A stretch of DNA of 64,000 nt from Bacteroidales bacterium (GTDB lineage: Bacteria > Bacteroidota > Bacteroidia > Bacteroidales > JAHJDW01). This document shows positions 3,830 to 45,405 of this stretch, one piece after another. How positions within the stretch are numbered: the first letter of the stretch is position 1; every line of letters begins with the position of its first letter. The notes beneath the pieces were generated by a model, which was not told the origin of the DNA, searched no databases, and saw only the letters and a list, made by a program, of their open reading frames with translations. The DNA lies in the NCBI GenBank assembly GCA_029004185.1, contig JAQUPB010000001.1, forward strand, positions 1,322 to 65,321. The letters run 5' to 3'. The position numbers were made by a program, and so were the translations under genes.

Positions 3830-5399
3830 TGGTATTATTTTTATTATCATTTATAGTTATTATGAATTTGCTTCCTTTATTTAATTCGCTTTCTACTTCA
3901 ATTTTGCCGTTATGTTTTTCTACGATTGCTTTTACATAATTAAGTCCCAGTCCATATCCTTTTACATCATGAATATTTCCCGTGGAAACTCTGTAAAGTT
4001 TGTCAAAAATCTTTCTCTGCGATGATTTCCCTATTCCTATTCCGTTGTCTTCAAAAGTAATTTCTATTCCGTTTTCAATATCTTTCGTTGTAATAAAAAT
4101 CAACGGTTTTTCCAGAGAATATTTGTTTGCATTATCAAGTAAATTATACACCATGTTGGTCATATGAATTTTATCGGCAAAGATAATATTCCTCTTGGCT
4201 TCCAAATTAGTGATTACTCTTCCCTGTTTCTTTTCAATCTGAATGCTTATGTTGCGGATGACTTCATTTATAATTTTATGAACGTCGATATTCTGAAAAT
4301 CGAATTTCAAATTTCCTTTTTCGAGTAAAGATGTCTGCATTATATTCTCGGTAAGCACACCAAGCCGTTTGTTTTCTTCTTCGATAAGCCGCAGGAATTT
4401 TTGGGTATTTGAAGTTGATTTTTCGAAATCGGTATCGGATAACGCTTCGCAGGCAAGTGAAATTGTAGATATCGGGGTTTTAAGTTCATGTGTTATGTTG
4501 TTTATGAAGTCATTTTTTATTTCCGTGATTTTTCTTTGTCTTATGATGAATAAAATTGTAAATAAAAATCCCAGTACAATTATAGAAACAAATAATCCCG
4601 ATGTCAACAGTACAATCCACATGGTTTTCAGAATGTATTGTGTTTGGCTGGGAAAATAAACCATCAAAAATTCCTGATTTGAGAAAATATCTTTCGGATA
4701 AAGTTTTACTTTATAGTTGGATTGCAAAAGTTCATTTTTATATCTGGCGGTTTTCTGTATTGTAAACTCACTATCGTTTTTTATGTTTTGAACTCCGAAT
4801 TCAAAATTAGCTTCAATGCCTTTTTTCTGGAGTTCGGTTCTTATAACGGAATCAACAAGTTCTCTTGAAATGACAGCTTCAACTTTTTTAAAAATGTTGT
4901 CAACCATCAGATCTCTTATAACGCTGTTCAGGAATTTTGTTCGCCTTTTAATCAGTTTATTCATTTCATTTTTTTCATCACTCATTTTCTGAACAGGCGC
5001 TTTCTGGTTTACTTTTATGATTCTTTCTTTATCGGTTAATTTATGAATTGTAGAATCGGAAAATTCAATTTTCCTGGTGGTATTAAAACTGAATCTTTGT
5101 GGATTTCCTGCCTGATAGAACAATGTTTCCGCTTCGTTCACAAGGGTGTTATTTAACGAATCGCTGTCTAATAATTTATTCTGAAGAGCATTCTTTGTGA
5201 TGATTTTTTTTAATTGCTTCGTTACTTCTTTTTTTTCTATTATGTCGGCAACATTGTTCAAACTTTCAATTACACTTTTATCGAATGATTGTCCTTTTAC
5301 TTTTATTGCAATGTTTATCCAATAAAACTGAATACCAATAAGACCGATGAGACTCGCCGACATTAAAATAATCAATATTCTTATTAAGGTTCTGTTCAT
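3816..5399 (-). CDS. Sensor histidine kinase
   Basis: 527 aa. Two hydrophobic TM segments, H-box ITHELKTPIS, N box LLDNANKYS, G boxes DNGIGI and GYGLGLNYV. Translationally coupled to the regulator. Confidence 0.85.
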   Translation of the reverse strand: MNRTLIRILIILMSASLIGLIGIQFYWINIAIKVKGQSFDKSVIESLNNVADIIEKKEVTKQLKKIITKNALQNKLLDSDSLNNTLVNEAETLFYQAGNPQRFSFNTTRKIEFSDSTIHKLTDKERIIKVNQKAPVQKMSDEKNEMNKLIKRRTKFLNSVIRDLMVDNIFKKVEAVISRELVDSVIRTELQKKGIEANFEFGVQNIKNDSEFTIQKTARYKNELLQSNYKVKLYPKDIFSNQEFLMVYFPSQTQYILKTMWIVLLTSGLFVSIIVLGFLFTILFIIRQRKITEIKNDFINNITHELKTPISTISLACEALSDTDFEKSTSNTQKFLRLIEEENKRLGVLTENIMQTSLLEKGNLKFDFQNIDVHKIINEVIRNISIQIEKKQGRVITNLEAKRNIIFADKIHMTNMVYNLLDNANKYSLEKPLIFITTKDIENGIEITFEDNGIGIGKSSQRKIFDKLYRVSTGNIHDVKGYGLGLNYVKAIVEKHNGKIEVESELNKGSKFIITINDNKNNTNERK

Positions 5400-5405
5400 T
5401 CGAAA

Positions 5406-7391
5406 TTAAATTTTGGTTTTTACTTTGTCCGTAAGCTCTTTTATATAACTGTCGGTTATCGGATATCCCAGTTCTTTAGCTCTCCTTGCATCTTCCAGAG
5501 CTTCTTTATATTTTCCGAGAATTTTATAAATAACAGAACGGTTATAAATTGCATTATAGTAATTTGGTTTTAGCTCAATTGCTTTGTTATTGTCATTCAA
5601 CGCTTCCTTATAATTTTTCAGGTTGAAATACGCAACTCCCCTGAAAAAATAAGTATTTGTATCATTTGGTAATTGCGAAATGCAATAACTGTAATCATCA
5701 ATTGCTTTTTTATATTCACCGAGCGAAAGATATGTAAATGCCCTGTTTTGGTACAATTTCACGGCATTAGGAATAAATTTAATTGCTATGTTATAATCTT
5801 CCAATGCTTTTTTGTATTCTTTCATCATCGAGTAGGTAATGGCTCTGTTGAGGTATGCATCGGAATTATTTTTGTCGAGTTGTATTGACCTTGAATAATC
5901 GGCAAGCGACTTATCCCATTTTGCCTGAAGTCCGAAAATATTTCCCCTGTTGCTGAAAACTTTTGCATCTTTTGATTTCATAGAGTCAAGGGCATTATAA
6001 TCAACAAGAGCTTCTGCATACATTCCTTTTTGTGCATAATAATTGCCTCTGTTTTTATGGGCGACTTCAATAAACCAGTATTTGTTAAGAACGTCTGTCC
6101 ACAGGGTATCTGTATTTTTCCAGATTTTTGCGCGCTGATTTGTGAGGTATGAAAAAATACAAGCCGAACCCAAAATCAAAATAATAAAAACATATTTTAA
6201 ATTGCGAAACAACGGAATGGGATTATTATGAAACCAGCTGTAGCCCATTCCAATCATAAAGAGCAATCCTATATATGGCAAATATGCATATCTGTCGGCT
6301 GTAATTGCAGCACCAACAGAAACAAACTGAAGCACGAGCGCAATTGTAATTAAATAAAATAAAAATCCGAAAGCAATAATTCTTGTACGCTTCAGCGATA
6401 AAAAAACAAGAACAATCAAAACAGGTAACGCTCCGAGAGAGATATTATAAATCAAGGGTAATCCTCCATTTACAATTGTAGGATAAGGATAAAAAGCGGA
6501 AAGGTTAACCGGAATAAAGAGTTTATATATGTATGCGAAAAATCCGTATGAGGCAAATTCAAATCTCTGCAATAAAGTGAAAACCCCGAACTTTGCAATT
6601 GCATCGGTTTTTTGTGCTTCTACCGCAATAAATCCCATTATTCCCGAAAAAAGAAGGAAAGGAATTTTTTCAAGAATCAGTTTTAATGTAAGTTTTCTCT
6701 GGTAATAATAATCGAGCAGTAACATAACAACAGGCAGTGTTACGGCAACGGCTTTTGCAAGCACCGATAAAGCGAAGAAAATAAATACAAGAATAAGTTT
6801 TAGTATTTTTCTTTCGTCGGATTTCAGATATTTTATGTAAGTAATTAATGCGAGAAGATAAAACATTGTATATAAAACATCTTTCCGTTCGGCAATCCAT
6901 GTAACCGATTCGACATGCATAGGGTGAATACCGAAAAACAACGACACAATAAAAGCGACTTCAATTTTTTTATTGCTTAACAAAAAGATGAACCAGAATA
7001 CAAGTAATGTATTTATCAAATGCAGAATTACATTTGTTGCGTGAAATACTTCGGGTTTGAAAACATAATCGCAAAGCTTATATTCCATTGCAAAGCTTAG
7101 CATTGTCAAAGGGTGGTAATTGCACGAAATGAAAGAAGTGAAGATGTTGTTGAAGTTCTTTTGCATGTTCAGGAAAATGGGATTCTCCAACAGGTAAGTA
7201 GGGTCATCCCAGTTTGTGAAATCATTTTTCAGCGAAGGGTAAAAAGAGAAAAAAGTTGCCAGAACAACAACAGCAAGCGGAAGAATGAATTTATTAAAAC
7301 CCGTTGCATTTCGTTTGGGTTTTATTTGCTGTTTGCTGGCTTTATTGTCTTTGAATTTTATATTTTTCTGAAACTTCTTCTTATTAGACAT
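5406..7391 (-). CDS. Polytopic membrane protein (GT-C/PMT-like N-terminal half) fused to C-terminal TPR repeats
   Basis: 661 aa. Many hydrophobic helices in the first ~430 aa, then about six 34-aa TPR-like units (for example YYAQKGMYAEALVDY and AIELKPNYYNAIYNR). Confidence 0.65.
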   Translation of the reverse strand: MSNKKKFQKNIKFKDNKASKQQIKPKRNATGFNKFILPLAVVVLATFFSFYPSLKNDFTNWDDPTYLLENPIFLNMQKNFNNIFTSFISCNYHPLTMLSFAMEYKLCDYVFKPEVFHATNVILHLINTLLVFWFIFLLSNKKIEVAFIVSLFFGIHPMHVESVTWIAERKDVLYTMFYLLALITYIKYLKSDERKILKLILVFIFFALSVLAKAVAVTLPVVMLLLDYYYQRKLTLKLILEKIPFLLFSGIMGFIAVEAQKTDAIAKFGVFTLLQRFEFASYGFFAYIYKLFIPVNLSAFYPYPTIVNGGLPLIYNISLGALPVLIVLVFLSLKRTRIIAFGFLFYLITIALVLQFVSVGAAITADRYAYLPYIGLLFMIGMGYSWFHNNPIPLFRNLKYVFIILILGSACIFSYLTNQRAKIWKNTDTLWTDVLNKYWFIEVAHKNRGNYYAQKGMYAEALVDYNALDSMKSKDAKVFSNRGNIFGLQAKWDKSLADYSRSIQLDKNNSDAYLNRAITYSMMKEYKKALEDYNIAIKFIPNAVKLYQNRAFTYLSLGEYKKAIDDYSYCISQLPNDTNTYFFRGVAYFNLKNYKEALNDNNKAIELKPNYYNAIYNRSVIYKILGKYKEALEDARRAKELGYPITDSYIKELTDKVKTKI

Positions 7392-8716: not shown

Positions 8717-8804
8717 AGACGCAGATAAATTATGAATAACAATGAAAACACACAGATTCTTAAAAATCATAAATAATAATATAATTTCATAATTAATCAG
8801 CGTC
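8717..8804 (+). repeat. CGCAGAT-family element, copy F3 (degenerate, upstream flank of the GxxExxY gene)
   Basis: Starts with agacgcagat and ends with aatcagcgtc, the same termini as F1. The interior has diverged. Confidence 0.6.
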
Positions 8805-8814
8805 CAAAAAAAAT

Positions 8815-9231
8815 ATGATAAACAATAATTTTAAACATAGCGACATTACCGAAAAGATATTACGCGCATTCTTTAATGTTTATAACAGCTTAGGTTATGG
8901 ATTTCTTGAAAAGGTTTATGAAAATGCAATGTTGATCGAATTAATAAAATTAAATCTTAATGCAGTGAAGCAAAGTCCTGCAAAAATATATTATGATGAT
9001 GTTCTGGTTGGCGATTATTTTGCCGACATTGTTGTAGAAAATAAAGTTATTCTTGAACTAAAAGCCATTGAAAACCTTTGTCCTGAGCATGAAGTGCAGT
9101 TGGTAAATTACCTGAAAGCAACAGAAATTGAAGTTGGTTTATTGCTTAACTTCGGTAAAAAGCCGCAGTACAAAAGAAGAGTATTGACAAAAGAATATAG
9201 AAATAAAAAAGTAGACGCGGATTTAATATAA
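8815..9231 (+). CDS. GxxExxY protein (PD-(D/E)XK nuclease-like superfamily)
   Basis: 138 aa. Contains GYGFLEKVYENAM (GxxExxY) and DIVVENKVILELK (a D...ExK-like core). The last six codons lie in repeat F4. Confidence 0.8.
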   Translation: MINNNFKHSDITEKILRAFFNVYNSLGYGFLEKVYENAMLIELIKLNLNAVKQSPAKIYYDDVLVGDYFADIVVENKVILELKAIENLCPEHEVQLVNYLKATEIEVGLLLNFGKKPQYKRRVLTKEYRNKKVDADLI

Positions 9232-9277
9232 AAAATATGAAAAAACGCAGAAAAGAAATCAGTGTAAATCTGCGTCT
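9213..9277 (-). repeat. CGCAGAT-family element, copy F4 (inverted orientation, downstream flank of the GxxExxY gene)
   Basis: agacgcggatttaatat...atgaaaaaacgcaga...aaatctgcgtct aligns to the reverse complement of F1. Its end, atctgcgtct (9268-9277), is the perfect inverted complement of agacgcagat at 8717-8726. Confidence 0.7.
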
Positions 9278-9615
9278 AATAAATAAAAAAAAACAAGAAC
9301 AATTAATTATATATGAATATACAACAAAAAGTTTATAATTGCTTATACTTTAATATTTAATAAATGGTTTTTTACAATGTTCACAAATGCACAAATTAAA
9401 AAGCCCCCTCACAAGTGGCTAAAAAAATAAATGAAGCAATACCAAATAATTTAATAACCAAAAGAAAGGAGGCATAACAAAAGTACAGAGAAATTAAATA
9501 AATTCCAAACTAAAGATTTTATATTTAAAGTTTGGACGCATAGGGGAAAACTACCGGCGGAAGGGGAGTTTTGAAAAAAAGTAAATTGTTTTATAAAATT
9601 TAAAATTTAATAAAA

Positions 9616-9825
9616 ATGAAAAAGTTAGAATCAATTAAAAATGCTAAATTTGAAGCATTAAACAAAAATCAAATGGGTAAATTAAATGGTGGTGGAAAAG
9701 CAGCCGGAGACATTAATTTCTCTGGTCCAGGTACAGTAACTATAGGTAGCAACACTTATAAATATTCTGGTGACCAGTCAACACCTGGCGGAGGTACACA
9801 GTATTCAGATGCAAAACTTGTCTAA
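9616..9825 (+). CDS. RiPP precursor peptide with double-glycine-type leader
   Basis: 69 aa. The leader MKKLESIKNAKFEALNKNQMGKLNGG ends in GG(G). The Cys-free core is GKAAGDINFSGPGTVTIGSNTYKYSGDQSTPGGGTQYSDAKLV. First gene of an operon that encodes a C39-peptidase ABC exporter. Confidence 0.7.
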   Translation: MKKLESIKNAKFEALNKNQMGKLNGGGKAAGDINFSGPGTVTIGSNTYKYSGDQSTPGGGTQYSDAKLV

Positions 9826-9837
9826 TAATTGTATTAT

Positions 9838-9870
9838 AAAAGGCTGTCTTTATTTATAAGACAGCCTTTT
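9838..9870 (+). terminator. Intrinsic terminator or attenuator immediately after the precursor gene
   Basis: Perfect 13 bp stem (aaaaggctgtctt / aagacagcctttt) with the 7 nt loop tatttat. Starts 13 nt after the stop codon. Confidence 0.65.
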
Positions 9871-9906
9871 ACTTTATGTAAAGTATAACTATTAAAATAA
9901 AAATAA

Positions 9907-10956
9907 ATGAAAAGATTACTATTTGCATATATAATAGTTAATTTATTTGTAATCGCAATATTTTCGCAAAATTCAGATTACACAAAGGTTTATTACCCAT
10001 TTACAAACAAAGCTGAATTGAATATAATTGAAAATAATTACAAAAAAGCTTTAAGGAAATATAAAAAAGCATTTGATAATGCTCCACATGCCTTTGCCAG
10101 AGATTTGTATAATGCAACGCTTTGTGCAATAAGAGTAAATAAACTCGATTTTGCCTATAAATGCATGGATAGTTTAATTAGTAAAGGCTTAAATATTGAT
10201 TTTTTTGAAATTAATAATGAATTTGATACATTAAAGAAAGATTATAGATGGGAAAAATTTAAGTCGGATTATCCTATATATAAAAAAATAGCTGATAAAA
10301 GAATTAACAAACAATTATCAATAATGTTCAGGAAAATGGAAGATGACGACCAAAAATTCAGATATGATTACGAAACATTTGGTGATACAATAAAAAAAAT
10401 TGATTCAATGAATATGAAAATATTTTTAGATATAATTGATAAATACGATTTTCCATGTGAGGAAATTATAGGAATAAATTCATCACTGGGAAAATATAAT
10501 GAAAGTTTTTATATTGTTTTACATCATAATTGTCAGAAATTTTCATTACCAGGAAATGAAAAATTATTTAATCTTAAAAATATACTGATAAAAGCAATTA
10601 AAGATGGAAAGTATGATAAATATACTGCGGCATATTTGCTCATTTTACAAAATGACTCAACAATTAAAATAGGAGATGTAGGGATAACTCAAATTATTAA
10701 TAAAGCGATACCTGATTCTGAAAATAAATATTACATACAAAAATATTTATCCAAAAAACAAAAAAAAGAATATGATGTTTATCGAGCAGGTATAGGTTTA
10801 GAAACCTTAAATGATTTCTATAAAAAATTAATATTTTTTCATATAAATAAAAATCATAGTCCTTTTAAATTTTATGTTAAATACGACAAGTGGGTATTTA
10901 ATAATGAATTATACAGTAAATTCATAAAATCATTTGTAGAATTAAAATTACAATAA
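9907..10956 (+). CDS. Hypothetical secreted or periplasmic protein (signal peptide; helical-repeat-like N-terminal part)
   Basis: 349 aa. N-terminal hydrophobic signal sequence MKRLLFAYIIVNLFVIAIFSQ. No family recognised with confidence. Its stop is 3 nt before the ATP-grasp start. Confidence 0.6.
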   Translation: MKRLLFAYIIVNLFVIAIFSQNSDYTKVYYPFTNKAELNIIENNYKKALRKYKKAFDNAPHAFARDLYNATLCAIRVNKLDFAYKCMDSLISKGLNIDFFEINNEFDTLKKDYRWEKFKSDYPIYKKIADKRINKQLSIMFRKMEDDDQKFRYDYETFGDTIKKIDSMNMKIFLDIIDKYDFPCEEIIGINSSLGKYNESFYIVLHHNCQKFSLPGNEKLFNLKNILIKAIKDGKYDKYTAAYLLILQNDSTIKIGDVGITQIINKAIPDSENKYYIQKYLSKKQKKEYDVYRAGIGLETLNDFYKKLIFFHINKNHSPFKFYVKYDKWVFNNELYSKFIKSFVELKLQ

Positions 10957-10959
10957 TAA

Positions 10960-11946
10960 ATGCTTTTAATATTTAGCGAAGAAACAGATAGAACAACAGA
11001 TTATGTTTGCTCATGGTTAAATTATTTGAAAACATCTTATGTTAGGATTAATAATAAAATAAATGCTAATATAATTGATGAAATTGAAATAAGTAATAAT
11101 ACTATAAATATAAATCTCAGCCGAAAACAAAATAAATACAAATTTGAAGATATTGATATTGTCTGGTTCAGGCGAGGATATTTAACTTTTTCTGTTGAAA
11201 ATTTGAAAGAACTAAATATTTCCGAAAATGCAAGAGAAGAAATAAATAGACATATAATTGAACAAAATACAACACTTGGGATTTTTTTTTATGAAAATAC
11301 AAAATATAAAAAAACCATAAATGACCCAAGAATATATAATGCCAATAAATTAATAACATTACAAACTGCAATTGATATCGGACTAAAAGTTCCCGCAACA
11401 ATAATTACAAAAAATAAAAACAGCATCCTTAACTTCAAGAGGAAATACAAAAATATTATAACAAAGCATATTCAGGATATTATTAATATGATACTTGAAG
11501 ATGGTAAAAACATTTTTGTGTTAACCAATAAAGTTTATAAAAAAGAAATAACAGAAGAAACTTATTATTATTCATTATTTCAAGAAGAAATTAAAAAGAA
11601 ATATGAATTAAGAATATTTTATTTTCTTGGTAAGTTTTACAGTGCGGCAATATTTTCGCAATTAAGTGAAGTTTCAAAAATTGATTTCAGAGATAATAAT
11701 CTAAATAGAGAAAAACCAAGTAGAATAGCACCGTTTAACCTACCTAAAGAAATAAAAATAAAACTTGATAATTTGATGAAAAAATCAAGTTTAGAAAGCG
11801 GCTCAATAGATATGATTGTTACGCCGGAAAATGAATATGTTTTTTTGGAAGTTAATCCTGTTGGACAACTTGATTTTGTTAGCAAACCATGCAATTATTA
11901 TATTGAAAAAGACATTGCAAAATATTTTAGAGATGGAAAAATCTGA
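10960..11946 (+). CDS. ATP-grasp peptide maturase (RiPP ligase, grasp-with-SPASM type)
   Basis: 328 aa. ELRIFYF and the C-terminal GSIDMIV...YVFLEVNPVGQ match the ATP-grasp Mg/ATP-binding region. The N-terminus MLLIFSEETDRTTDYVCSWL resembles what I recall for this maturase family. Confidence 0.8.
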   Translation: MLLIFSEETDRTTDYVCSWLNYLKTSYVRINNKINANIIDEIEISNNTININLSRKQNKYKFEDIDIVWFRRGYLTFSVENLKELNISENAREEINRHIIEQNTTLGIFFYENTKYKKTINDPRIYNANKLITLQTAIDIGLKVPATIITKNKNSILNFKRKYKNIITKHIQDIINMILEDGKNIFVLTNKVYKKEITEETYYYSLFQEEIKKKYELRIFYFLGKFYSAAIFSQLSEVSKIDFRDNNLNREKPSRIAPFNLPKEIKIKLDNLMKKSSLESGSIDMIVTPENEYVFLEVNPVGQLDFVSKPCNYYIEKDIAKYFRDGKI

Positions 11947-12127
11947 AAAAAAATATTTAATACCAATTGATAAAAGAAAATACTTTCCTTTTAATTATCA
12001 ATATCTGGTAAAACCAAATGATTCATCAATTGATAAGATGTCAGTATATAAAGATTCTAAAATAGAAAAAATACAAAACGATAATGCAGAGGTAATACCA
12101 TTTTACAAATCAATATCAAGATTTTAA
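11933..12127 (+). CDS. Small 64 aa ORF translationally coupled between the ATP-grasp and SPASM genes (accessory protein or second substrate?)
   Basis: The ATG at 11933 lies inside the last codons of the ATP-grasp gene. Its TAA (12125-12127) abuts the next ATG (12128). No GG motif and no Cys. Confidence 0.45.
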   Translation: MEKSEKKYLIPIDKRKYFPFNYQYLVKPNDSSIDKMSVYKDSKIEKIQNDNAEVIPFYKSISRF

Positions 12128-13255
12128 ATGAATACAGATAAAAAATATTTTCGTTTATTTGCCACATGTATTCCCGTGAAAGGATACGAACGTTCTGCTA
12201 TTTGCGATATTCATAGATGTAATGTTGAGTTTATTCCCAATTCACTTTATGAAATTATTACAAATAATGAAAACAAAACTTATAGCGAATTGATTGAAAT
12301 ATTTGGAGCAGAACAAAAACAAGTGATTGATGAATATTTTGAATTTTTGCTCGAAAAAGAATTCGGATATTTCTTTAATAAAGACGAATTGGAGCTTTTT
12401 CCTAAACTTAATCTGCAATGGGATTTTTATTCTGATGTGAGCAATGCAATAATTGATTTAAAAGAATATTCGAATTATGATATAAAAGAAGCAATTAAAC
12501 AACTTGATGATATTGATTGTTTCCATTTGCAAATAAGATTTTTTTTAAAAACACAAAAAGAAAAAATAATTGAATTACTTGAATTGATTAATGAAACGTC
12601 AATACGTTCAGTTCAAGTCATGTTGTCTTTCAATACTTTAAATAATACAGATGAATACATACAGCTTTGTAAAGATTACTTAAAAATAAGTAAAATCGAA
12701 TGTTATAATAGCAGGAAGAGTGAAATAATAGATGTGTTCGGAAACCTTTCGCAAGTTTTATTAAACGGAAAAAAAATAAAAGATGAAACTACTTGTGGTA
12801 TGGTAGATGTTGGGTATTTTTCACCAAACACACCACATTTTACCGAATCCCAACATCACAATACTTGCCTGAACCGAAAAATTAGTATTGATGCAAATGG
12901 TAAAATTAAAAACTGTCCTTCGATGCAAAAGAGTTTTGGAAATATTAAAAATACAACATTAAAAGAGGCATTGGGAAAACCTGGTTTTAAAGATTTGTGG
13001 AGCATAAGAAAAGATGATATTGATGTTTGCAAAGATTGTGAATTTCGTTATATATGCACTGACTGCAGAGCATACTTAAAAGACCCAAGCAATATTTATT
13101 CACAACCGGCAAAATGTCTGTATAATCCTTATATTGCCAAATGGGAAGGTGAAGAAGGTTATATAAAAGTTGAGGACTGGCGGAAACAAAACCCTGATTG
13201 GGAAAAGGGATTAAAAAGGGAACCATTAGTAAAAAAAATTCAATTAGTGCAATGA
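12128..13255 (+). CDS. SPASM-domain peptide maturase lacking the canonical radical-SAM CX3CX2C motif
   Basis: 375 aa. The C-terminal Cys pattern is CX10GX4C (CLNRKISIDANGKIKNC), then CKDCEFRYICTDC (CX2CX5CX2C), then a distal Cys (AKCLYNPY). The N-terminal Cys are C14, C26 and C31 (CX11CX4C), so there is no CX3CX2C. Confidence 0.8.
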   Translation: MNTDKKYFRLFATCIPVKGYERSAICDIHRCNVEFIPNSLYEIITNNENKTYSELIEIFGAEQKQVIDEYFEFLLEKEFGYFFNKDELELFPKLNLQWDFYSDVSNAIIDLKEYSNYDIKEAIKQLDDIDCFHLQIRFFLKTQKEKIIELLELINETSIRSVQVMLSFNTLNNTDEYIQLCKDYLKISKIECYNSRKSEIIDVFGNLSQVLLNGKKIKDETTCGMVDVGYFSPNTPHFTESQHHNTCLNRKISIDANGKIKNCPSMQKSFGNIKNTTLKEALGKPGFKDLWSIRKDDIDVCKDCEFRYICTDCRAYLKDPSNIYSQPAKCLYNPYIAKWEGEEGYIKVEDWRKQNPDWEKGLKREPLVKKIQLVQ

Positions 13256-15441
13256 AAAATTTCCCCTTCTATACCCAACTCGATTCAATGGACTGCGGTC
13301 CCTCATGTTTACGCATGATTGCGAAGCATTACGGAAAGACATATACATTGCAGAATTTGCGTGATAAAAGTTTTATTACACGTGAAGGAGTGTCGTTACT
13401 TGGTATTAGCGATGCAGCTGAAGCAATTGGCTTTCGCACAATGGGAGTGAAAATAAGTTTTGAAAAACTTGCAAAAGAAGCTCCACTGCCTTGCATTGTA
13501 CATTGGAATCAGAATCATTTTGTGGTGGTATATAAAATACATAAAAACAATGTTTATGTAGCCGATCCCGGACATGGGTTGGTAAAATATACAACCGAAG
13601 AATTTAAGAAATGCTGGCTCAGCACAAAAGCCGAAGGCGAAGAAAAGGGAATTGCATTGCTTTTAGAGCCGACACCCGACTTTTATAAAATCGAAGATGA
13701 GAAAAAAAACAAATCAAGTTTTGGATATTTATTTTCTTATTTAACACCTTATAAAAAATTTATAGTACAGTTAATACTTGGGTTGCTGCTTGGCAGCATG
13801 CTGCAGCTTGTATTTCCTTTCCTTACCCAATCGGTAGTTGATGTAGGTATAAGTAACCAGAACATAAATTTTATTTATCTGGTTCTTATTGCACAATTAA
13901 TGTTGTTCTTCAGTCGGGCTACAGTTGATTTTATCCGCGGCTGGATATTACTGCACCTTGGCACGCGAATAAACATCTCGCTTATTTCCGACTTCCTGAT
14001 GAAATTAATGAAACTGCCAATCGGCTTTTTCGATACAAAAATGATTGGCGATTTAATGCAGCGCATTTCAGATAATCACCGAATAGAAACATTTCTTACT
14101 TCATCATCACTGAGTATTTTATTTTCAATGATGAATTTAATCATATTCAGCATCGTACTTGCAATTTATAGTTTGAAGATATTTATAATATTTCTTGCAG
14201 GTAGTATTCTATACACGCTTTGGATATGGATTTTCCTGAAAAAACGCCGCGAACTTGATTTTAAACGTTTTGCTCAAATGTCGGACAATCAAAGCAACTT
14301 ATTCCAATTGATTACCGGCATGCAGGAAATAAAACTTAATAATTGCGAAAAGCAAAAGCGATGGGAATGGGAACGGATACAATCAAAATTATTCAAAGTA
14401 AGCATAAAGAGTTTGGCATTATCGCAATATCAGCAAGCCGGTTCGGTAGTAATTAATGAAACAAAAAATATAATCATTTCCATAATAGCGGCAAAAGCGG
14501 TGATAGACGGCAATATTACACTCGGTATGATGCTTGCCGTTCAGTATATAATCGGGCAGTTGAACAGCCCTATTGAACAGATGATAAATTTTATACAGGC
14601 AGCACAGGATGCAAAAATAAGCTTGGAACGATTAGGCGAAATTCACAACAAGAAAGATGAGGAAAATCCCGATGATGAGAAAATCACAATATTCCCCGAA
14701 AATAAAAGTATTTCAATAAATGAACTTTCATTTCAATATGAAGGACCACATTCCGAATTTGTTTTGCAGGATTTAAGTTTGAATATTCCCGAAAGTAAAA
14801 TTACAGCAATAGTAGGAACAAGCGGAAGCGGAAAAACAACAATGGTTAAATTAATGCTTGGATTTTACCCGCCGACAAAAGGAGAAATAAAAATAGGAGA
14901 TGTGGGATTGCCGAATTTCAGCCAAAGAATGTGGCGTGCAAAATGCGGAGCGGTAATGCAGGACGGATTTATTTTTTCAGATACAATTGCAAAAAATATT
15001 GCAGTGAGTGACGAAACAGTTAATAAAGAAAAACTATTACATGCCGTAAAAGTGGCGAACATACAGGAGTTCATCGAATCGTTGCCTCTTGGTTACAACT
15101 CAAAAATCGGACAGGAAGGACACGGAATAAGTCAGGGACAAAAACAAAGAATGTTGATAGCACGGGCAGTTTACAAAAATCCCGAATATATTTTCTTTGA
15201 TGAAGCCACAAATGCATTAGATGCGAATAATGAGCTTGTGATAATGAAAAATCTTGAAGAGTTCTTTAAAGGAAAGACGGTTATCATTGTAGCACACAGA
15301 TTAAGCACAGTGAAAAATGCAGATAAAATAGTTGTTTTAGAAAAGGGAAAAATTGTAGAAACAGCAAATCATGAAGAACTGACAAATTTGAGAGGAGCAT
15401 ATTATAATTTGGTAAAAAACCAGTTGGAACTGGGGAATTAG
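13252..15441 (+). CDS. Peptidase C39 domain-containing ABC transporter (bacteriocin/RiPP processing exporter)
   Basis: The N-terminus QLDSMDCGPSCLRMIAKHYG carries the C39 catalytic Cys. Six-TM region, Walker A GTSGSGKTT, signature ISQGQKQR, Walker B IFFDEATNALD. Start chosen at the ATG at 13252, which overlaps the upstream TGA (ATGA). Confidence 0.9.
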   Translation: MKNFPFYTQLDSMDCGPSCLRMIAKHYGKTYTLQNLRDKSFITREGVSLLGISDAAEAIGFRTMGVKISFEKLAKEAPLPCIVHWNQNHFVVVYKIHKNNVYVADPGHGLVKYTTEEFKKCWLSTKAEGEEKGIALLLEPTPDFYKIEDEKKNKSSFGYLFSYLTPYKKFIVQLILGLLLGSMLQLVFPFLTQSVVDVGISNQNINFIYLVLIAQLMLFFSRATVDFIRGWILLHLGTRINISLISDFLMKLMKLPIGFFDTKMIGDLMQRISDNHRIETFLTSSSLSILFSMMNLIIFSIVLAIYSLKIFIIFLAGSILYTLWIWIFLKKRRELDFKRFAQMSDNQSNLFQLITGMQEIKLNNCEKQKRWEWERIQSKLFKVSIKSLALSQYQQAGSVVINETKNIIISIIAAKAVIDGNITLGMMLAVQYIIGQLNSPIEQMINFIQAAQDAKISLERLGEIHNKKDEENPDDEKITIFPENKSISINELSFQYEGPHSEFVLQDLSLNIPESKITAIVGTSGSGKTTMVKLMLGFYPPTKGEIKIGDVGLPNFSQRMWRAKCGAVMQDGFIFSDTIAKNIAVSDETVNKEKLLHAVKVANIQEFIESLPLGYNSKIGQEGHGISQGQKQRMLIARAVYKNPEYIFFDEATNALDANNELVIMKNLEEFFKGKTVIIVAHRLSTVKNADKIVVLEKGKIVETANHEELTNLRGAYYNLVKNQLELGN

Positions 15442-15523
15442 ACGCTGATTTAATATGAAAAAATGAAAAAACACAGATAAAAAATCATATCCGTCAGCTG
15501 ACGGACAGCGTTAATCTGCGTCT
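15440..15523 (-). repeat. CGCAGAT-family element, copy F5 (inverted orientation) between the ABC and HlyD genes
   Basis: agacgctgatttaatatgaaaa...aacacagat...cgttaatctgcgtct aligns to the reverse complement of F1. It carries an internal perfect 14 nt palindrome, ccgtcagctgacgg (15491-15504). Confidence 0.75.
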
Positions 15524-15531
15524 TAAAAATA

Positions 15532-16839
15532 ATGGAAAAAGAAGAAATAAATAAAATAGAAATCCGCAGCGAAGAAGTGCAGGAAATTCTTGGCAGACCA
15601 CCACGTTGGGTTATACGTTGGGGAATTACTGTCATATTTATTGTTATTGCTGTTATTTTTATTGGAAGTTATTTTTTCAAATATCCCGATGTAATTAACT
15701 CTACAATAATTGTAAATACAGAGAACTTACCTGCAAATGTTGTAGCAAAAACAAATGGAAAAATCGTAGCTCTTTTTATTAAGGACAAACAAAAAGTTAA
15801 AAAAGATAACATACTTGCAATAATTGAAAACCCTGCAAACTTTGATGATGTAGTAAGGTTAAAAATAAAATTAGATTCCGTAAATATCAAAAGTATTCTG
15901 TTAAAAGATTCAATGAAAACCATACAATTCAATGAAAGTTATATTTTAGGCGATTTGCAAACTTCGTATATCGGATTTCTGAAAGGGCTGAAAGATTATC
16001 AGATATTTATTGAATCAGATTTTCAGCACAAAAAAATAAATTCACTCAAAAATCAAATAAGCAAATACAATACTTTATTATCCCGGCTTTCGAAACAATC
16101 AAATATAATGGACAAGCAACTTGATATTGCAAAGCAGCAACATTCAAGAGATTCGGCATTATATAAAAACAGCACTATTTCAAAAATTGATTTTGAAAAA
16201 TCGGAAAATGCCTTATTGCAAAGTAAATACTCTTATGAAAGTGCAAAAAGCAGTTTGGATAATACAAGAATTACGATTTCTCAGATAGAACAAAATATTT
16301 TAGAACTCCAGCAACAATACGATGAACAAAAACAACAACTCGAACTAGCTTTAAACAACAATTATGAAGCATTGAAAAATCAAATTAAAACGTGGGAACA
16401 AACATATTTATTAAAAAGCCCTATTGATGGAAAAGTTACTTTTACTCAATACTGGAGCGTGAATCAAAATGTAAAAGCAGGAGATAATGTTATTACCATT
16501 GTTCCCGAAAAAGAAGCAAAAATTATAGGAAAAATTAAACTACCGATACAAGGTTCAGGAAAAGTAAAAGTTGGCCAGAAAGTAAACATTAAGTTTGCAA
16601 ATTACCCATACATGGAATATGGGATGGTAAAAGGAATAATAAAGTCAATATCACTTGTTCCTATGGATGCAAATTATACAGTAGAAGTTGAATTACCCGA
16701 AGGATTAAAAACAAACTACAACAAAACTCTTATCTTCAGCCAGGAAATGCAGGGAAGTGCAGAAATTATTACTGATGATATACGTTTAATAGAAAGATTT
16801 TTAAATCCTTTGAAAGCTGTTTGGAAAAAGAATATCTGA
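15532..16839 (+). CDS. HlyD-family secretion adaptor protein
   Basis: 435 aa. N-terminal TM anchor after RSEEVQEILGRPPRWVIRWG, a long coiled-coil-like Q/E/L-rich middle, and a beta-barrel-like C-terminus. Confidence 0.85.
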   Translation: MEKEEINKIEIRSEEVQEILGRPPRWVIRWGITVIFIVIAVIFIGSYFFKYPDVINSTIIVNTENLPANVVAKTNGKIVALFIKDKQKVKKDNILAIIENPANFDDVVRLKIKLDSVNIKSILLKDSMKTIQFNESYILGDLQTSYIGFLKGLKDYQIFIESDFQHKKINSLKNQISKYNTLLSRLSKQSNIMDKQLDIAKQQHSRDSALYKNSTISKIDFEKSENALLQSKYSYESAKSSLDNTRITISQIEQNILELQQQYDEQKQQLELALNNNYEALKNQIKTWEQTYLLKSPIDGKVTFTQYWSVNQNVKAGDNVITIVPEKEAKIIGKIKLPIQGSGKVKVGQKVNIKFANYPYMEYGMVKGIIKSISLVPMDANYTVEVELPEGLKTNYNKTLIFSQEMQGSAEIITDDIRLIERFLNPLKAVWKKNI

Positions 16840-16916
16840 AAATATTCTTTTTTGCATTGTTTAAAAAAGAAAAAAAGTAAAAGAATCGAAATGAAAATTA
16901 TTGATAAATTAAAAAA

Positions 16917-19358
16917 ATGAACAAATTTTTTTACATATTATTTTTTCTTGCCCTTGCATTTGCTTCCTCCTCACAGGAATTGCAAATACAAGGTAAATTA
17001 ATTGACAGTACCACAAAAGCGTCATTACAGTTTTCAAATATTATAATTAAAAATCAAAATGATTCTGTTATAAAAGGAGTTCTTACAAACGAAAAGGGAG
17101 AATTCAAAATAAATTTGGTAATTGGTAATGGGTATAAGCTGGTTGCAAACAGCATGGGGTACAAAGAAAAAACCATTTTACTGAATATAGATATAAAAAC
17201 CAAAACATATAGAATCGGAGAAATAACCCTTGCGCCGAAAGTATTTCAGTTGAAAGAAACGAATGTAGCTTCTAACGTACCATACATGGAAAAAAAGTTT
17301 GACCGCAAGGTTTTTAACATCAGCGAAGCAAAAACTGCAGCGGCACGTTCAATATTTGATTTACTACGGACTTTACCAGGTGTTGTCGTTAATGAAGAAG
17401 GAAGTGTGCGATACAAAGGAGCAGAAGCAACAATATATGTTGATGACCAGCCGTCAAATTTTATGTATCCGAAACTTGAAATGATTCCTGTTGCAAAAGT
17501 TGACAAAATAGAATTGATTGATGCTTCAATGCAATCAGGAGGGGAAGGTAAAGGAGGAATAATCAATATTAAAATGAAATCTGTTAATACAGATGGATTA
17601 AGCGGAATTGCTTCATCTGATATTAATACCATTGAATTTAAAAATATTGATAAATCGGAGAATTTTGTTAATGCAAACTATAAAAAAAATAAAGTAACAA
17701 TATTAAATAATTTTTCGATTGATGAAAATTTATATAATAGTAGTAGTCAATCTGAAAGTAAAATAAGCGCTTTTCAAACACCAACCGAACAAAGTTCAAA
17801 TTATTCTAGTAATTCCGATAATAAATCATATTATGATTATTTCGGTGCTATTTATAATCCTACAAAAAAGACAAGATTTTATTTTGGTGGCGGAACATAT
17901 AATTCCTCTTTCATATCAGGTTCTTCAGGCGATTTTACTGAACTTGAAAGTTCCATCAAAAGTATTCTGAATAGTAATAATAATTGCCATAGGTATGATT
18001 CAAAATATGATTATAAAGGAATAAATTTTTCTTTCCGACATAAATTTGATACAAATGATACTTATATAAGGATGTTTGCAGGGTTTCAATTTATTGACGA
18101 TTTTTCTAATTCTTCCGCAACTTATAATTATGAAATAATAAATTCTGTTTGTTATGATAGTATATTTAAATATGATAGAAAAGATTTATCATATGGAAAC
18201 AGAGGTTTATACAGTAATATTTTTTATAATCATACTATTTCAAAAAATGCAAGATGGAATATTCGATATTATAATTACTTCAAATTAAAAGAAAACAATG
18301 ACAGCAAATACTACATCTTTGATGATTTGTACATGCCTGAAACTTATTCCAATAATTCCACATCACAATACCATAACATGTCAGCCCGTATTGGCTCAAA
18401 CTGGAATAAATGGAAATTTGATGGCGGAGTAAACGCACAATATACTAAAACAGAAATAGCTTTTTTAAGACATACTGAAGAATTAAAAGATACAGCATTC
18501 TCTGTAGTTAAAGATTATTTAAAAATATTGCCTTCAGTTACAATATCATTTGCAATAAATGATACGGAAGAAATAAAACTTACATTATCGCAGACAACAC
18601 AAACACCATATTATCTCCAACTTTCTGACTACATAAGCAAAGAAAATCCATATTATTGGTGGTCGGGAAATTCCAAATTAAAACCATCGGATTTTTATTC
18701 TGCATATCTTGGGTATTCATATACAAAAGAAAAATGGAATGCATCGGCGGAAGGATTTTTCAACTATACAAACAATGAAATTACTTATGTTTCTTATCCT
18801 TTGACTTCTATGCTTTATCTTTCCAAACCTATGAATGGTGCAAAGAAAAGTGAAACAGGTATTGATGTTTCAACATGGGTAATGGTTACTGATAAATTAA
18901 ACTTTTCGCTATCATCGAGTATTTCTTATGTTTACTATAATTCAAAAGCATTACAAGAAAGCGCAAGTAAATATAACCTTCCTACGGAGAATTTAATTAA
19001 CCGGCAATTTGGTTACAATATAAAATATAACATGGAATATAAAATAAAAAAATTCTATGCTATGTTTTATGTTAATTATTTCAGCAGGGAATTAAAATAC
19101 AATGGATATAATTATGGTTATATAAACTCATCATTTAATGTGAGCAGGAAATTCTTTAAGGATAAATTAAGAATCACTTTAAGTGCAAATAACCTGTTTG
19201 ATGACATGGTAAAACGCGGCTCTGTTGAAAATTATTTTGGTATTTACCAGGTTGAAAGAAGACATTCTTCAAATTATAAACGGATGTATGGAATTTCCAT
19301 TCAATACACTTTCCGCCAGGGCGATAGAGGCACAAAGGATATGAAAGTCGGGGGATAA
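16917..19358 (+). CDS. Outer-membrane beta-barrel protein with an N-terminal carboxypeptidase-regulatory-like domain and a TonB-receptor-like plug
   Basis: 813 aa. Signal peptide, then IQGKLIDSTT...GEFKINL (CarboxypepD_reg-like) and DLLRTLPGVVVNEEGSVRYKG (plug-like). The remainder is rich in aromatic, Asn and Ser residues and ends YGISIQYTF. Confidence 0.75.
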   Translation: MNKFFYILFFLALAFASSSQELQIQGKLIDSTTKASLQFSNIIIKNQNDSVIKGVLTNEKGEFKINLVIGNGYKLVANSMGYKEKTILLNIDIKTKTYRIGEITLAPKVFQLKETNVASNVPYMEKKFDRKVFNISEAKTAAARSIFDLLRTLPGVVVNEEGSVRYKGAEATIYVDDQPSNFMYPKLEMIPVAKVDKIELIDASMQSGGEGKGGIINIKMKSVNTDGLSGIASSDINTIEFKNIDKSENFVNANYKKNKVTILNNFSIDENLYNSSSQSESKISAFQTPTEQSSNYSSNSDNKSYYDYFGAIYNPTKKTRFYFGGGTYNSSFISGSSGDFTELESSIKSILNSNNNCHRYDSKYDYKGINFSFRHKFDTNDTYIRMFAGFQFIDDFSNSSATYNYEIINSVCYDSIFKYDRKDLSYGNRGLYSNIFYNHTISKNARWNIRYYNYFKLKENNDSKYYIFDDLYMPETYSNNSTSQYHNMSARIGSNWNKWKFDGGVNAQYTKTEIAFLRHTEELKDTAFSVVKDYLKILPSVTISFAINDTEEIKLTLSQTTQTPYYLQLSDYISKENPYYWWSGNSKLKPSDFYSAYLGYSYTKEKWNASAEGFFNYTNNEITYVSYPLTSMLYLSKPMNGAKKSETGIDVSTWVMVTDKLNFSLSSSISYVYYNSKALQESASKYNLPTENLINRQFGYNIKYNMEYKIKKFYAMFYVNYFSRELKYNGYNYGYINSSFNVSRKFFKDKLRITLSANNLFDDMVKRGSVENYFGIYQVERRHSSNYKRMYGISIQYTFRQGDRGTKDMKVGG

Positions 19359-20234: not shown

Positions 20235-21284
20235 TTACAATATCAACATTGCATCACCGTAAGTGAAAAATCTGTATTTTTCTTTAATAGCAACTTCATA
20301 AGCGTGCATTAAAAAGTCGAATTCTGCAAAAGCTGCTGCCATCATCATCAAAGTGGATTGCGGCAAATGGAAATTGGTAACCATAGCATCTGCAATGCTG
20401 AATTCATGAGGAGGAAAAATGAATTTATTTGTCCATCCGTTGAACTGATTTAAAGTGCCGTTTGTTGAAACCGATGATTCTACAGCTTTCATTGATGTTG
20501 TGCCTACTGCGCATACCATCTTTTTACTTTGTTTTGCTTTGTTAACAATTTCGGCTGCTTTTGCATCTATAATAACCTGTTCGGAGTCCATTTTATGCTT
20601 GGAAAGGTCTTCAACATCCACGTTTCTGAAGTTTCCCAATCCTGCGTGCAGGGTTATCTCGGCAAAATTAACGCCTTTAAGCTGTAATTTTTTAATTAGA
20701 TTTTTGCTGAAATGGAAACCGGCAGTAGGAGCAACAACGGCGCCTTCGTGCTTTGCATAAACCGTCTGATATCTTTCCTTATCTTCAGGTTCAACTTTTC
20801 TTTTAATATGTTTTGGAAGCGGTGTTTGTCCGAGTTCTTCAATTGTATTTTTAAAATCTTCCTGTGAGCCATCGAATAGAAACCTGAGAGTTCTTCCTCT
20901 TGAAGTTGTATTGTCAATTACTTCTGCTACCAGCGAGTCATCTTCGCCGAAGTATAATTTGTTGCCTATTCTTATTTTTCTTGCAGGGTCAACCAAAACA
21001 TCCCATAATCGTGATTCGCGGTTTAATTCTCTGAGAAGGAAAACTTCGATTTTTGCGCCTGTTTTTTCTTTTGTTCCGAAAAGCCGCGCAGGGAAAACTT
21101 TGGTATTATTCAGTATTATTACATCGCCATCATGAAAATAATCAATTATTTTGTGAAAAACCTTATGTTCGATTTTTTTTGTATCCCTGTGTATGATCAT
21201 CAACTTTGACTCTTCACGGTTTTTAACAGGGTGTAATGCAATGAGTTCCGACGGCAAATGATATCTAAAATCCGATAATTTCAT
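20235..21284 (-). CDS. queA: S-adenosylmethionine:tRNA ribosyltransferase-isomerase
   Basis: 349 aa. [22 protein letters not shown]...[29 protein letters not shown]. Confidence 0.9.
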
Positions 21285-21368: not shown

Positions 21369-22595
21369 CTATAAAAATCTCTGAAACACGCAACTGTCGC
21401 CAAAACTGAGAAAGCGAAAATTGTTTTTTAGGGCATAATTATAGGCATTTTTCCATTTTTCGCCGATAAATGCAGCAACCAATAACAATAAAGTACTTTG
21501 CGGCATGTGAAAATTTGTAATCAGATAATTTGCAGTTTTGAACTTATAACCGGGAATGATAATTAAACTTGTCTGTGCCGATAGTAAAGTTTTGTTCTTT
21601 TTTTTCAAATAATCCAGCAAATAATTTAACGATTCTTGAAATGAAATATCAATATTGAAGTTATTCTGGTATGCTTCCCATTGGTCAAGAAATAGAATTT
21701 CTTTTTTTTGGAAATCTTTGTCAACTTTAAGTTTAACTCCCATTAAATACAAACTTTCCAGAGTGCGTAAAGTTGTCGTTCCTACCGAAATAATATTTTC
21801 ATGTTTGTTATATATCAGGTTTTTCAGGGTTTCTGAGCTTACGGAAAAAAATTCTGTATGCATTTTATGATTTTCAATACTGTCTTTTACGGGTAGAAAA
21901 GTTCCTGCACCTACATGTAAAGTGACGTATTCAAAATCTGTTTTTTTCTTTTTCAATTCTTCAAGAACATTTTCGGTAAAGTGTAATCCAGCTGTTGGAG
22001 CGGCAACTGAACCTTTTTCTCTTGCATATATTGTCTGATATTTATTCTTATCGCTGTAATCTGATAAGCGTTTGATGTAAGGAGGAAGCGGAGTTTGTCC
22101 GAACATATCAATCACTTCGGCAAATGAAAAATTTTCGGGTTGCCAGCAGAATTCAACAACGAAAAAATCTTTTTCACAGCATAGTTGGTTTACCGATAAG
22201 CAGACTTCTTTGTTTATATATATTATTTTATTGAAAAGCAATCCTGTTTTCCATTTACTTGCATTTCCAATAAAGCATTTCCATTTACAGCTTCCCTTTT
22301 TTTCAAAAGCAATGTTATACTCATCCAGCGGCTCAAGGCAGAATATTTCGATTTTTGCACCGCTTGGTTTTTTGAAAAATATTCTTGCCTGAATAACTTT
22401 CGTATCATTGAAAATCATTAATGAATCTCCGGGGAGATGGCTTGAAAGATTTTTAAATATATCATCACAGATTTTACCTTCTTTAAAAACAAGTAATTTT
22501 GAATTATCCCTTTCTTTCAGCGGAAACTGGGCAATTCTTTCGGGAGGAAGAGGGTATGAAAAATCTTTGATATTGAGGTTCTCGGTAAGCAACAT
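21369..22595 (-). CDS. Divergent QueA paralogue (S-adenosylmethionine:tRNA ribosyltransferase-isomerase family)
   Basis: 408 aa. FSYPLPPERIAQFP, GQTPLPPYIKR, YQTIYA...APTAGLHFT, TNFHMPQSTLLLL, FGDSCVF. Relative to the adjacent queA it carries a ~45 aa insertion before the TNFH motif. Confidence 0.75.
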   Translation of the reverse strand: MLLTENLNIKDFSYPLPPERIAQFPLKERDNSKLLVFKEGKICDDIFKNLSSHLPGDSLMIFNDTKVIQARIFFKKPSGAKIEIFCLEPLDEYNIAFEKKGSCKWKCFIGNASKWKTGLLFNKIIYINKEVCLSVNQLCCEKDFFVVEFCWQPENFSFAEVIDMFGQTPLPPYIKRLSDYSDKNKYQTIYAREKGSVAAPTAGLHFTENVLEELKKKKTDFEYVTLHVGAGTFLPVKDSIENHKMHTEFFSVSSETLKNLIYNKHENIISVGTTTLRTLESLYLMGVKLKVDKDFQKKEILFLDQWEAYQNNFNIDISFQESLNYLLDYLKKKNKTLLSAQTSLIIIPGYKFKTANYLITNFHMPQSTLLLLVAAFIGEKWKNAYNYALKNNFRFLSFGDSCVFQRFL

Positions 22596-42500: not shown

Positions 42501-42660
42501 AATTATTTCATTTTAAAATTTAAAGTTAATTTAATAATTTGAAATGTATTATAACAAATATATATATATTCATTTTCAAAAAAAAATATTATATTGTTGA
42601 AAGGTAAAATATTTTTTATGTTTTTAAGCATTTAATAAATTTGCAATAAAATTAAAAAGA

Positions 42661-44589: not shown

Positions 44590-44590
44590 T

Positions 44591-45226: not shown

Positions 45227-45405
45227 TATAAATTTCTATTTGCTAATTCTGTTTTAAATCTATATTTTATAATATTTTGGAGTTATTTTAAACTATCAAA
45301 ATAACAACAATAAAATATGAAATGCAAAACCAAAGCCTGCAAAAGAGCTTTCCTTTTAACCCACCAGAAAAAGAAGTACGGCAGACTCTTTGTAAAGTAA
45401 AAAAA

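Follow-up and report, generated by a model that had tools for sequence, protein, structure and literature searches.

Within the 64,000-nucleotide (nt) stretch of a Bacteroidales contig analyzed here (the window), eight open reading frames (ORFs) at 9616–19358, all on the + strand, constitute a complete grasp-with-SPASM (gwsG/gwsS) cluster for a predicted graspetide, a known kind of locus that has been catalogued as graspetide group 14 and as ATP-grasp branch 5. In the pathway that we propose, a precursor peptide with a double-glycine (GG) leader would be cyclized by the ATP-grasp ligase GwsG with the help of two partners, a small protein of the LPL family and GwsS, a SPASM protein without the cluster that cleaves S-adenosylmethionine (SAM), and the product would be exported by a C39 peptidase-containing transporter. 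We assign this explanation as a whole a probability of about 0.6.

The two enzymes that define the system were identified with hidden Markov models (HMMs). GwsG (10960–11946, 328 amino acids [aa]) scored 254 bits against TIGR04192, "grasp-with-spasm system ATP-grasp peptide maturase" (cut-off 230, E = 2e-75), and GwsS (12128–13255, 375 aa) scored 342 bits against TIGR04193, "grasp-with-spasm system SPASM domain peptide maturase" (cut-off 175, E = 3.7e-102). An earlier note on this DNA had stated that such a pairing is catalogued for Bacteroidota, and both matches lie above the curated cut-offs of exactly these entries. Its identification of a GG-leader precursor, a graspetide-type ATP-grasp enzyme, a SPASM partner and export by a C39 ATP-binding cassette (ABC) protein with HlyD was likewise supported, with ATP-grasp, SPASM, C39, ABC and HlyD assignments far beyond chance. 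The suggestion that the peptide represents an undescribed class did not survive, since the full architecture has already been described in silico (Makarova et al., 2022; bioRxiv 10.64898/2026.08.04.741601) and the family has thousands of members; the statement that no product is known is in line with what the searchable literature contains.

Makarova et al. (2022; PMC8939145) described the architecture as ATP-grasp "branch 5," a Bacteroidetes-specific group of 190 loci that combine the ATP-grasp enzyme, the TIGR04193 SPASM protein, a "cluster 23" secreted protein, C39-ABC and HlyD components, and hypervariable GG precursors. In the same survey, the gene for a small protein of the "LPL family" always immediately preceded the SPASM gene, and a PF14905 outer-membrane (OM) barrel (cluster 163) was among the associated families. 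Carter et al. (2026; PMC13097080) characterized other graspetide groups, whereas group 14 was only listed as co-occurring with a SPASM protein. A 2026 preprint reported gwsG/gwsS operons on integrative and conjugative elements (ICEs) of P. gingivalis; upstream of them lies a 222-bp propeptide that had not been called, and downstream are genes for an OM barrel, an ABC protein and HlyD (bioRxiv 10.64898/2026.08.04.741601). The window locus shares the gene set and order of these systems, which sometimes include the PF14905 barrel, but it is a divergent copy: its GwsS is 54%–58% identical to the nearest relatives among the matches listed, its DUF6624-like protein falls below Pfam detection, and its small protein carries FPFNY in place of LPL.

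Conservation was counted in 78 fetched loci, whose six-frame ORFs were searched with the window proteins and iterated HMMs. Gene order proved conserved: gwsG was present in 76 of the 78 and lay immediately 5′ of gwsS in nearly all. Homologues of the 349-aa protein encoded upstream of gwsG in the window were found in 40 loci, mostly in the same position, the peptidase-containing ABC transporter (PCAT) in 37, HlyD in 26 and a related GG precursor in 22; the OM barrel had a single occurrence. More widely, the GwsS family comprises at least 4817 clusters at 90% identity, many of them so named by NCBI, and at least 578 loci were confirmed in species-representative genomes. Grasp-with-SPASM loci are among the commonest in Bacteroidota for peptides made on the ribosome and altered post-translationally (RiPPs), and the role of the SPASM partner is a family-wide question that had been recognized before. 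By itself the window copy adds little, yet it is compact and intact and has a single precursor without Cys.

Most of the confirmed loci belong to Bacteroidota, but some come from Thermoanaerobaculia (Acidobacteriota) and Longimicrobium metagenome-assembled genomes (MAGs); grasp-with-SPASM loci are therefore not restricted to Bacteroidota, contrary to what earlier descriptions imply. The Acidobacteriota loci in our set are L026, L027, L031, L035, L039–L043, L047, L050, L051, L063, L067 and L069, those of Longimicrobiaceae (Gemmatimonadota) are L074 and L077, and L032 is labeled Hyphomicrobiales, a lone alphaproteobacterial label that may be a binning artefact. The small protein takes the form VPVxYRFL...F[HR]KPISKC in the Acidobacteriota and Gemmatimonadota MAGs. 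Several genomes carry tandem cassettes of gwsG, small ORF and gwsS: locus L064 has three gwsG-gwsS pairs (approximately 472–2780, 3443–5801 and 8802–11068), and L014, L015, L021, L023 and L056 likewise hold two or three in one locus, which suggests cassette duplication alongside precursor diversification.

All eight co-directional ORFs claimed for the window locus are present in its ORF list, all genes of the operon are intact, and each of the tight or overlapping junctions was confirmed by rereading the sequence. The TAA at 10954–10956 is separated by 3 nt from the gwsG ATG at 10960; the ATG of the small LPL-family ORF at 11933 lies 14 nt inside the gwsG gene, which ends with TGA at 11944–11946; the TAA of the small ORF (12125–12127) directly adjoins the gwsS ATG at 12128; and gwsS overlaps the PCAT gene in an ATGA at 13252–13255. 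The description of the locus as a compact operon thus holds for the junctions but has to be qualified at the 5′ end, where a strong hairpin lies between the precursor gene and the enzyme genes.

The precursor gene (9616–9825) encodes 69 aa. Its leader (residues 1–26, MKKLESIKNAKFEALNKNQMGKLNGG, nt 9616–9693) ends in KLNGG and is followed by a further Gly, as had been read before. The 43-aa core, GKAAGDINFSGPGTVTIGSNTYKYSGDQSTPGGGTQYSDAKLV, lacks Cys and contains 10 Ser/Thr along with 3 Asp and 3 Lys; it includes the microviridin-like heptad TYKYSGD (nt 9754–9774), which shares the Thr, Lys and Asp spacing of the microviridin motif TxKxPSD. The peptide matched an HMM built from 26 syntenic precursors with E = 3.8e-13 and was the sole match in the window, where the HMM search found neither further precursors nor a second system; against TIGR04149 it scored 18.4 bits, below the cut-off of 25. 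Across the 26 relatives the leader is conserved (MKKLESLxxxKFxxLxxxEMxxLxGG) and the cores are hypervariable. Putative donor and acceptor residues recur in the cores all the same: 13 of 27 cores contain [YWF][ST]x?[DE] compared with 4.9 ± 1.9 in shuffles, and the heptad [ST]x[KSTQ][YWF][ST]x[DE], a pattern defined post hoc after the sequences had been viewed, is found in 7 of 27 compared with 0.12 expected. Twelve of the 27 cores, including that of the window, are Cys-free. The window leader has no Pro and contains no PFFARFL or Phhx(1,2)h ligase-activating motif; that branch 5 leaders lack an activating motif, and that a similar motif sits on the LPL protein, was already noted by Makarova et al. 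(PMC8939145).

A stem-loop at 9837–9871 (+ strand), detected as a terminator-like site and by its fold energy, begins 11 nt past the precursor stop codon and has a stem of 12–14 bp. Its predicted energy is −19.9 kcal/mol (z = −5.5), and none of 200 shuffled sequences was equally stable. Of 26 homologous loci, 20 have a hairpin in the equivalent position; their z values have a median of −4.5, and the sequence is not conserved. The element is probably a partial terminator or an RNA-stabilizing hairpin that sets the ratio of precursor to enzymes.

GwsG is most likely a graspetide-type ligase that makes ω-ester or ω-amide rings, a prediction drawn from its homology to MdnB, MdnC and CdnC and from the core motifs. 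After TIGR04192, its next NCBIfam matches were the MvdC and MvdD models, and the closest solved structures were AMdnB (PDB: 7m4s, E = 9e-27), CdnC (PDB: 7mgv), MdnC (PDB: 5ig9) and MdnB (PDB: 5ig8), with E values for this set from about 1e-19 to about 1e-26. The alignment with MdnC extends across the hairpin that binds the leader helix in that enzyme, a region that GwsG retains. In MdnC, Arg17 of the leader motif PFFARFL contacts Glu191, Asp192 and Asn195, and the GwsG family columns that match Glu191 and Asp192 are mostly Glu or Asp.

A motif of the microviridin leader type is found instead on the small protein encoded between gwsG and gwsS (11933–12127, 64 aa from the ATG). An ORF of 55–75 aa fills this gap in almost every locus, and an HMM of the syntenic small ORFs matched the window ORF with E = 8e-19. 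The family has two motifs, an N-terminal one (consensus LP[VL][NT]YRxL; FPFNYQYL in the window) and a nearly invariant C-terminal one (consensus FYKPISK[CI]; FYKSISRF in the window). With a strict regular expression, both were found upstream of at least 61 of 84 gwsS genes, and most of the others were recognized by eye. The P-x3-R-F-L spacing of the N-terminal motif is identical to that of PFFARFL. In four cases (L018, 9707–11071, 454 aa; P0074; P0081; P0118), LPL is fused to the N terminus of GwsS through a linker of approximately 35–45 aa; these natural fusions suggest that LPL is a physical partner of GwsS and not a product that is set free. We propose that LPL is an adaptor or trans-acting pseudo-leader linking GwsG and GwsS. 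Makarova et al. (2022) suggested that LPL is a PqqD-like RiPP recognition element (RRE), which we judge less likely because GwsS itself has an RRE-like domain.

GwsS was modeled with AlphaFold2 (mean predicted local distance difference test score [pLDDT] 87.8). The model contains an RRE-like winged helix at residues ~7–76 (four strands and three helices), a shortened β/α domain at ~100–215 and a SPASM domain at ~223–340. The last is also seen by sequence models, with PF13186 (E = 4.7e-7) and TIGR04085 both above their cut-offs. Eight Cys are invariant in an alignment of 40 homologues (C223, C247, C263, C301, C304, C310, C313 and C330), a number sufficient to ligate two auxiliary clusters fully, and C14 is the only near-invariant Cys in the N-terminal half. 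The radical-SAM motif CX3CX2C is absent from the window GwsS, from all of 120 homologues and from all of 84 locus-encoded copies; the SPASM motif CX2CX5CX2-3C is present in 120 of 120 homologues and 83 of 84 locus copies.

In a Foldseek search of the PDB, GwsS matched CteB (PDB: 5why, E = 5e-7) and SuiB, followed by SkfB and anSME, and its N terminus matched the stand-alone RRE protein TbiB1 (TM-score 0.67 on the target). A profile of the GwsS family found nothing below E = 0.3 among all PDB sequences, so only the fold comparison was informative. The central domain, with approximately four to five β/α units and N106 as its only invariant residue, matches fragments of TIM barrels, an assignment that comes from predicted structure with low global TM-scores of 0.3–0.36. 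Like the RRE-containing radical-SAM/SPASM RiPP maturases CteB (PDB: 5WHY) and SuiB (PDB: 5V1Q), GwsS appears to combine an RRE, a β/α domain and a SPASM domain with two auxiliary clusters; the other radical-SAM/SPASM or twitch fold matches, SkfB (PDB: 6EFN) and anSME (PDB: 4K36), and PqqE/PqqD belong to the same comparison. Unlike these maturases, GwsS has no CX3CX2C, and its barrel is reduced to ~115 residues with almost no conserved positions. On the evidence of the model, GwsS is derived from a radical-SAM maturase that kept the peptide-binding RRE and the auxiliary clusters, whereas its SAM cluster and a large part of the barrel have disappeared. The earlier description of GwsS as a SPASM-only protein is therefore right as to the missing radical-SAM cluster motif but overlooks the RRE-like domain and the barrel remnant. 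Having lost the SAM-cleaving cluster, GwsS cannot perform radical-SAM chemistry. We also considered a role in thioether formation, as in sactipeptides, and rejected it: there is no radical-SAM motif, the window core holds none of the Cys sulfur donors that the sactipeptide/ranthipeptide class uses, and with 12 of 27 cores free of Cys, thioether formation cannot be the conserved function of GwsS.

In the proposed pathway, the 69-aa precursor would be transcribed in excess while the hairpin attenuates read-through into the enzyme genes. GwsG would phosphorylate Asp/Glu side chains of the Cys-free core and close ω-ester, possibly also ω-amide, rings with Ser, Thr or Lys, the first most likely from Thr to Asp (i, i+6) within TYKYSGD. 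With no PFFARFL-type motif on the GG leader, LPL would probably supply the activator in trans through FPFNYQYL, and its FYKSISRF motif would dock on GwsS. GwsS, with an RRE and two [4Fe-4S] auxiliary sites but no SAM cluster, would most likely serve GwsG as an obligate partner that binds the leader, or as a scaffold, its clusters possibly serving in redox or sensing. The PCAT would then cleave after Gly26 and, with HlyD, export the cyclized 43-mer, and the DUF6624-like protein and the TonB-receptor-like barrel would be accessories for immunity, uptake or OM passage.

Compared with microviridin and chryseoviridin biosynthesis (MdnA/MdnB/MdnC, AMdnB and CdnC), the ligases are homologous, but the PFFARFL motif resides on the leader there and a PFFARFL-like motif on a separate small protein here, the window system would have an obligatory SPASM Fe-S partner, and a GG leader and PCAT stand in place of the microviridin protease. 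A partner-dependent graspetide synthetase is known in rosaritide biosynthesis, in which MirB works with the PPIase-like protein MirC (Carter et al., 2026; PMC13097080). There, as here, the ligase is strictly co-encoded with a lookalike of another enzyme class that may be a non-catalytic partner; the candidate partner here is instead a radical-SAM-derived Fe-S protein together with a small adaptor peptide, and by this analogy GwsG may depend on its partners as well.

The GwsS RRE, the LPL-GwsS fusions, the core heptad and the hairpin are new in-silico details, and the scheme built on them makes specific predictions: a Thr-to-Asp ring in TYKYSGD, a ligase dependent on LPL and GwsS, and no SAM cleavage by GwsS. 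If these hold, the group would add to the known cases of partner-dependent graspetide biosynthesis and offer an example of a radical-SAM enzyme turned scaffold. On a bolder and more tentative reading, GwsS would become the first SPASM protein of radical-SAM descent shown to function without SAM, and the recognition of the leader and the activation of the ligase, which a single leader combines in microviridins, would be divided among three polypeptides. Such a division would account for the processing of hypervariable cores by a single conserved set of enzymes.

Several observations weigh against this scheme. No paper on the product or chemistry of any grasp-with-SPASM cluster was found in the searchable literature, so ring formation is predicted by homology only. 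In the window, GwsG has Lys-Glu where the family has Glu-Asp, and the LPL motif has Gln in place of the family Arg; the specific salt bridge that the MdnC contacts would suggest is thus not conserved in this copy. Across loci, a covariation does speak for such a contact, with two acidic GwsG residues accompanying a basic residue at LPL position P+4 in 8 of 19 loci compared with 2 of 28 without the basic residue (Fisher p = 0.0086), but it is weak, and the statistic ignores phylogeny. Within GwsS, conservation is highest in the SPASM segment, which has many invariant polar residues besides the Cys, as would also be expected of a real active site. The post hoc definition of the heptad and the low TM-scores of the central domain, given above, belong on the same side.

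That GwsS is an obligate Fe-S partner working without SAM, whose RRE holds the GG leader while a GwsS-tethered LPL pseudo-leader activates the ligase in trans, is a possibility that we put forward only tentatively. As the main rival explanation, GwsS might instead be a tailoring enzyme that performs SAM-independent redox chemistry through its two [4Fe-4S] clusters, before or after cyclization by GwsG; it could, for example, dehydrogenate or hydroxylate the peptide or form a C-C/C-O crosslink where [YW]-S-x-D has its conserved aromatic residue, leaving a second modification on the product. Published analyses have assumed such a modifying role, and it would account for the invariant polar residues that accompany the eight Cys (E240, N245, N249, R250, K251, D303, E305, R307, D312 and R314), for the strict co-occurrence of GwsS with GwsG and for the aromatic residue conserved beside Ser/Asp in the cores. 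We nevertheless consider it rather unlikely. No CX3CX2C occurs in any of 204 sequences, the barrel is shortened and poorly conserved with N106 as its sole invariant residue, and the cores on which the enzyme would have to act are hypervariable and often Cys-free. We also know of no catalytic role for SPASM auxiliary clusters in the absence of a radical-SAM cluster.

Two further alternatives concern the substrate. The layout of LPL resembles that of a graspetide precursor, with a Phh-type N-terminal motif and a near-invariant C-terminal Lys/Ser motif, and one could imagine LPL as a second substrate whose conserved C-terminal core FYKPISK is modified by GwsG, GwsS or both. This is very unlikely: LPL lacks a GG site, neither the motif nor the residues behind it include a conserved acidic acceptor, its sequence is conserved whereas true precursors are hypervariable, and its covalent fusion to the GwsS N terminus in several genomes fits a subunit or adaptor. 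Still less probable is that the GG peptide is an unmodified, bacteriocin-like cargo of the PCAT and HlyD, with gwsG and gwsS either acting on a substrate encoded elsewhere or inactive. GG-leader peptides are frequent PCAT cargo in Bacteroidota, the cores are hypervariable and the window precursor scores below the TIGR04149 cut-off, all of which would fit; but in at least 22 related loci the maturase genes are directly preceded by a gene for a GG peptide that has the same leader, donor and acceptor motifs are enriched over chance in the cores, all the genes are intact and their junctions tight or overlapping, and the window holds no other precursor. Of the explanations weighed here, the gwsG/gwsS graspetide pathway with LPL and a SAM-less GwsS as partners is the one that we retain.

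The PCAT (13252–15441, 729 aa from the ATG) consists of a C39 peptidase, a transmembrane domain and an ATPase (Peptidase_C39, E = 9.6e-39; ABC_membrane, E = 1e-27; ABC_tran, E = 1.4e-27), with NHLM and bacteriocin ABC models as its best NCBIfam matches. The sequence QLDSMDCGPSCL, cited before as the mark of an N-terminal C39 domain, is present. The HlyD-family periplasmic adaptor (15532–16839, 435 aa) matched TIGR01843 (E = 1.8e-35) and HlyD_3 (E = 8e-11). A GC-rich palindromic hairpin, TGTCCGTCAGCTGACGGATA, is situated at 15488–15508 in the 90-nt gap between the PCAT and HlyD genes and is terminator-like on the minus strand.

The last gene of the operon (16917–19358, 813 aa) encodes a TonB-receptor-like OM barrel that matched PF14905 OMP_b-brl_3 (E = 3.7e-33), PF13715 CarboxypepD_reg (E = 2.6e-9), Plug (24.6 bits, cut-off 23.9) and, weakly, TonB_dep_Rec. 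The ABC and HlyD components of an exporter are present, and in Pfam searches the barrel had no match to OEP, the TolC-type OM factor. Its only homologue among the 78 loci was in L071, and the large neighboring ORFs in ten other loci encode proteins unrelated to it; the literature does record the barrel as a recurring associate of the system (cluster 163 of Makarova et al., 2022, and the P. gingivalis ICE loci). The earlier proposal that the barrel forms part of the exporter therefore found no support, as the protein has a plug and is not of the TolC type. Because it is so rarely linked to the system, we treat it as an accessory resembling a TonB-dependent receptor, with an uncertain role.

The 349-aa protein (9907–10956) had no Pfam or NCBIfam match of its own. 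It has an N-terminal signal-like helix, is all-α with TPR-like repeats and carries a divergent DUF6624-like domain, which was recognized from syntenic homologues and profile searches: 6 of 18 syntenic homologues matched PF20329 (DUF6624; best E = 5.8e-26), and a profile search started from the family retrieved PF20329 proteins. An AlphaFold2 model (pLDDT 78) gave only TPR-like matches in a fold search of the PDB and no functional lead. The protein belongs to the "cluster 23" family of Makarova et al. and, by sequence, would be secreted or membrane-anchored; it may confer immunity or serve as an accessory in the periplasm.

The GC content at 10001–12000, which covers the DUF6624-like and gwsG genes, is 23.4% compared with ~32% for the window; this may reflect horizontal acquisition and is the sole hint of transfer. 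A mobile-element setting like that in P. gingivalis was considered and set aside: the window copy sits between housekeeping genes with no recognizable ICE, and no integrase or conjugation genes were present among the flanking genes scanned. The flanks encode IspD, two QueA proteins, a methyltransferase, a two-component system and a TPR protein. An RprY-type regulator in the flank and the nearest GwsS homologues point to a low-GC member of Bacteroidota, probably Bacteroidales-like. Just upstream of the cluster is a GxxExxY/PD-(D/E)XK_3 protein (TIGR04256, E = 1e-38; 8815–9231, + strand), separated from the precursor gene by ~385 nt of non-coding DNA. An Rfam scan of the whole window returned no RNA family, and a sigma-70 promoter scan, which is uninformative for Bacteroidota, gave 70 sites compared with 65.6 expected in shuffles, i.e., no enrichment. 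A second low-GC stretch at 41541–46941 (25%–28%) contains ordinary lipopolysaccharide-type genes (a cytidylyltransferase, a Kdo transferase, a HAD hydrolase and an O-antigen-ligase-like protein) and a 319-aa ORF without a Pfam match. The two queA genes, for tRNA preQ1(34) S-adenosylmethionine ribosyltransferase-isomerase, are tandem paralogues at 20235–21284 and 21369–22595 (both on the − strand), each above its NCBIfam cut-off; the longer copy (21369–22595, 408 aa) matches the model in two stretches, which suggests an insertion.

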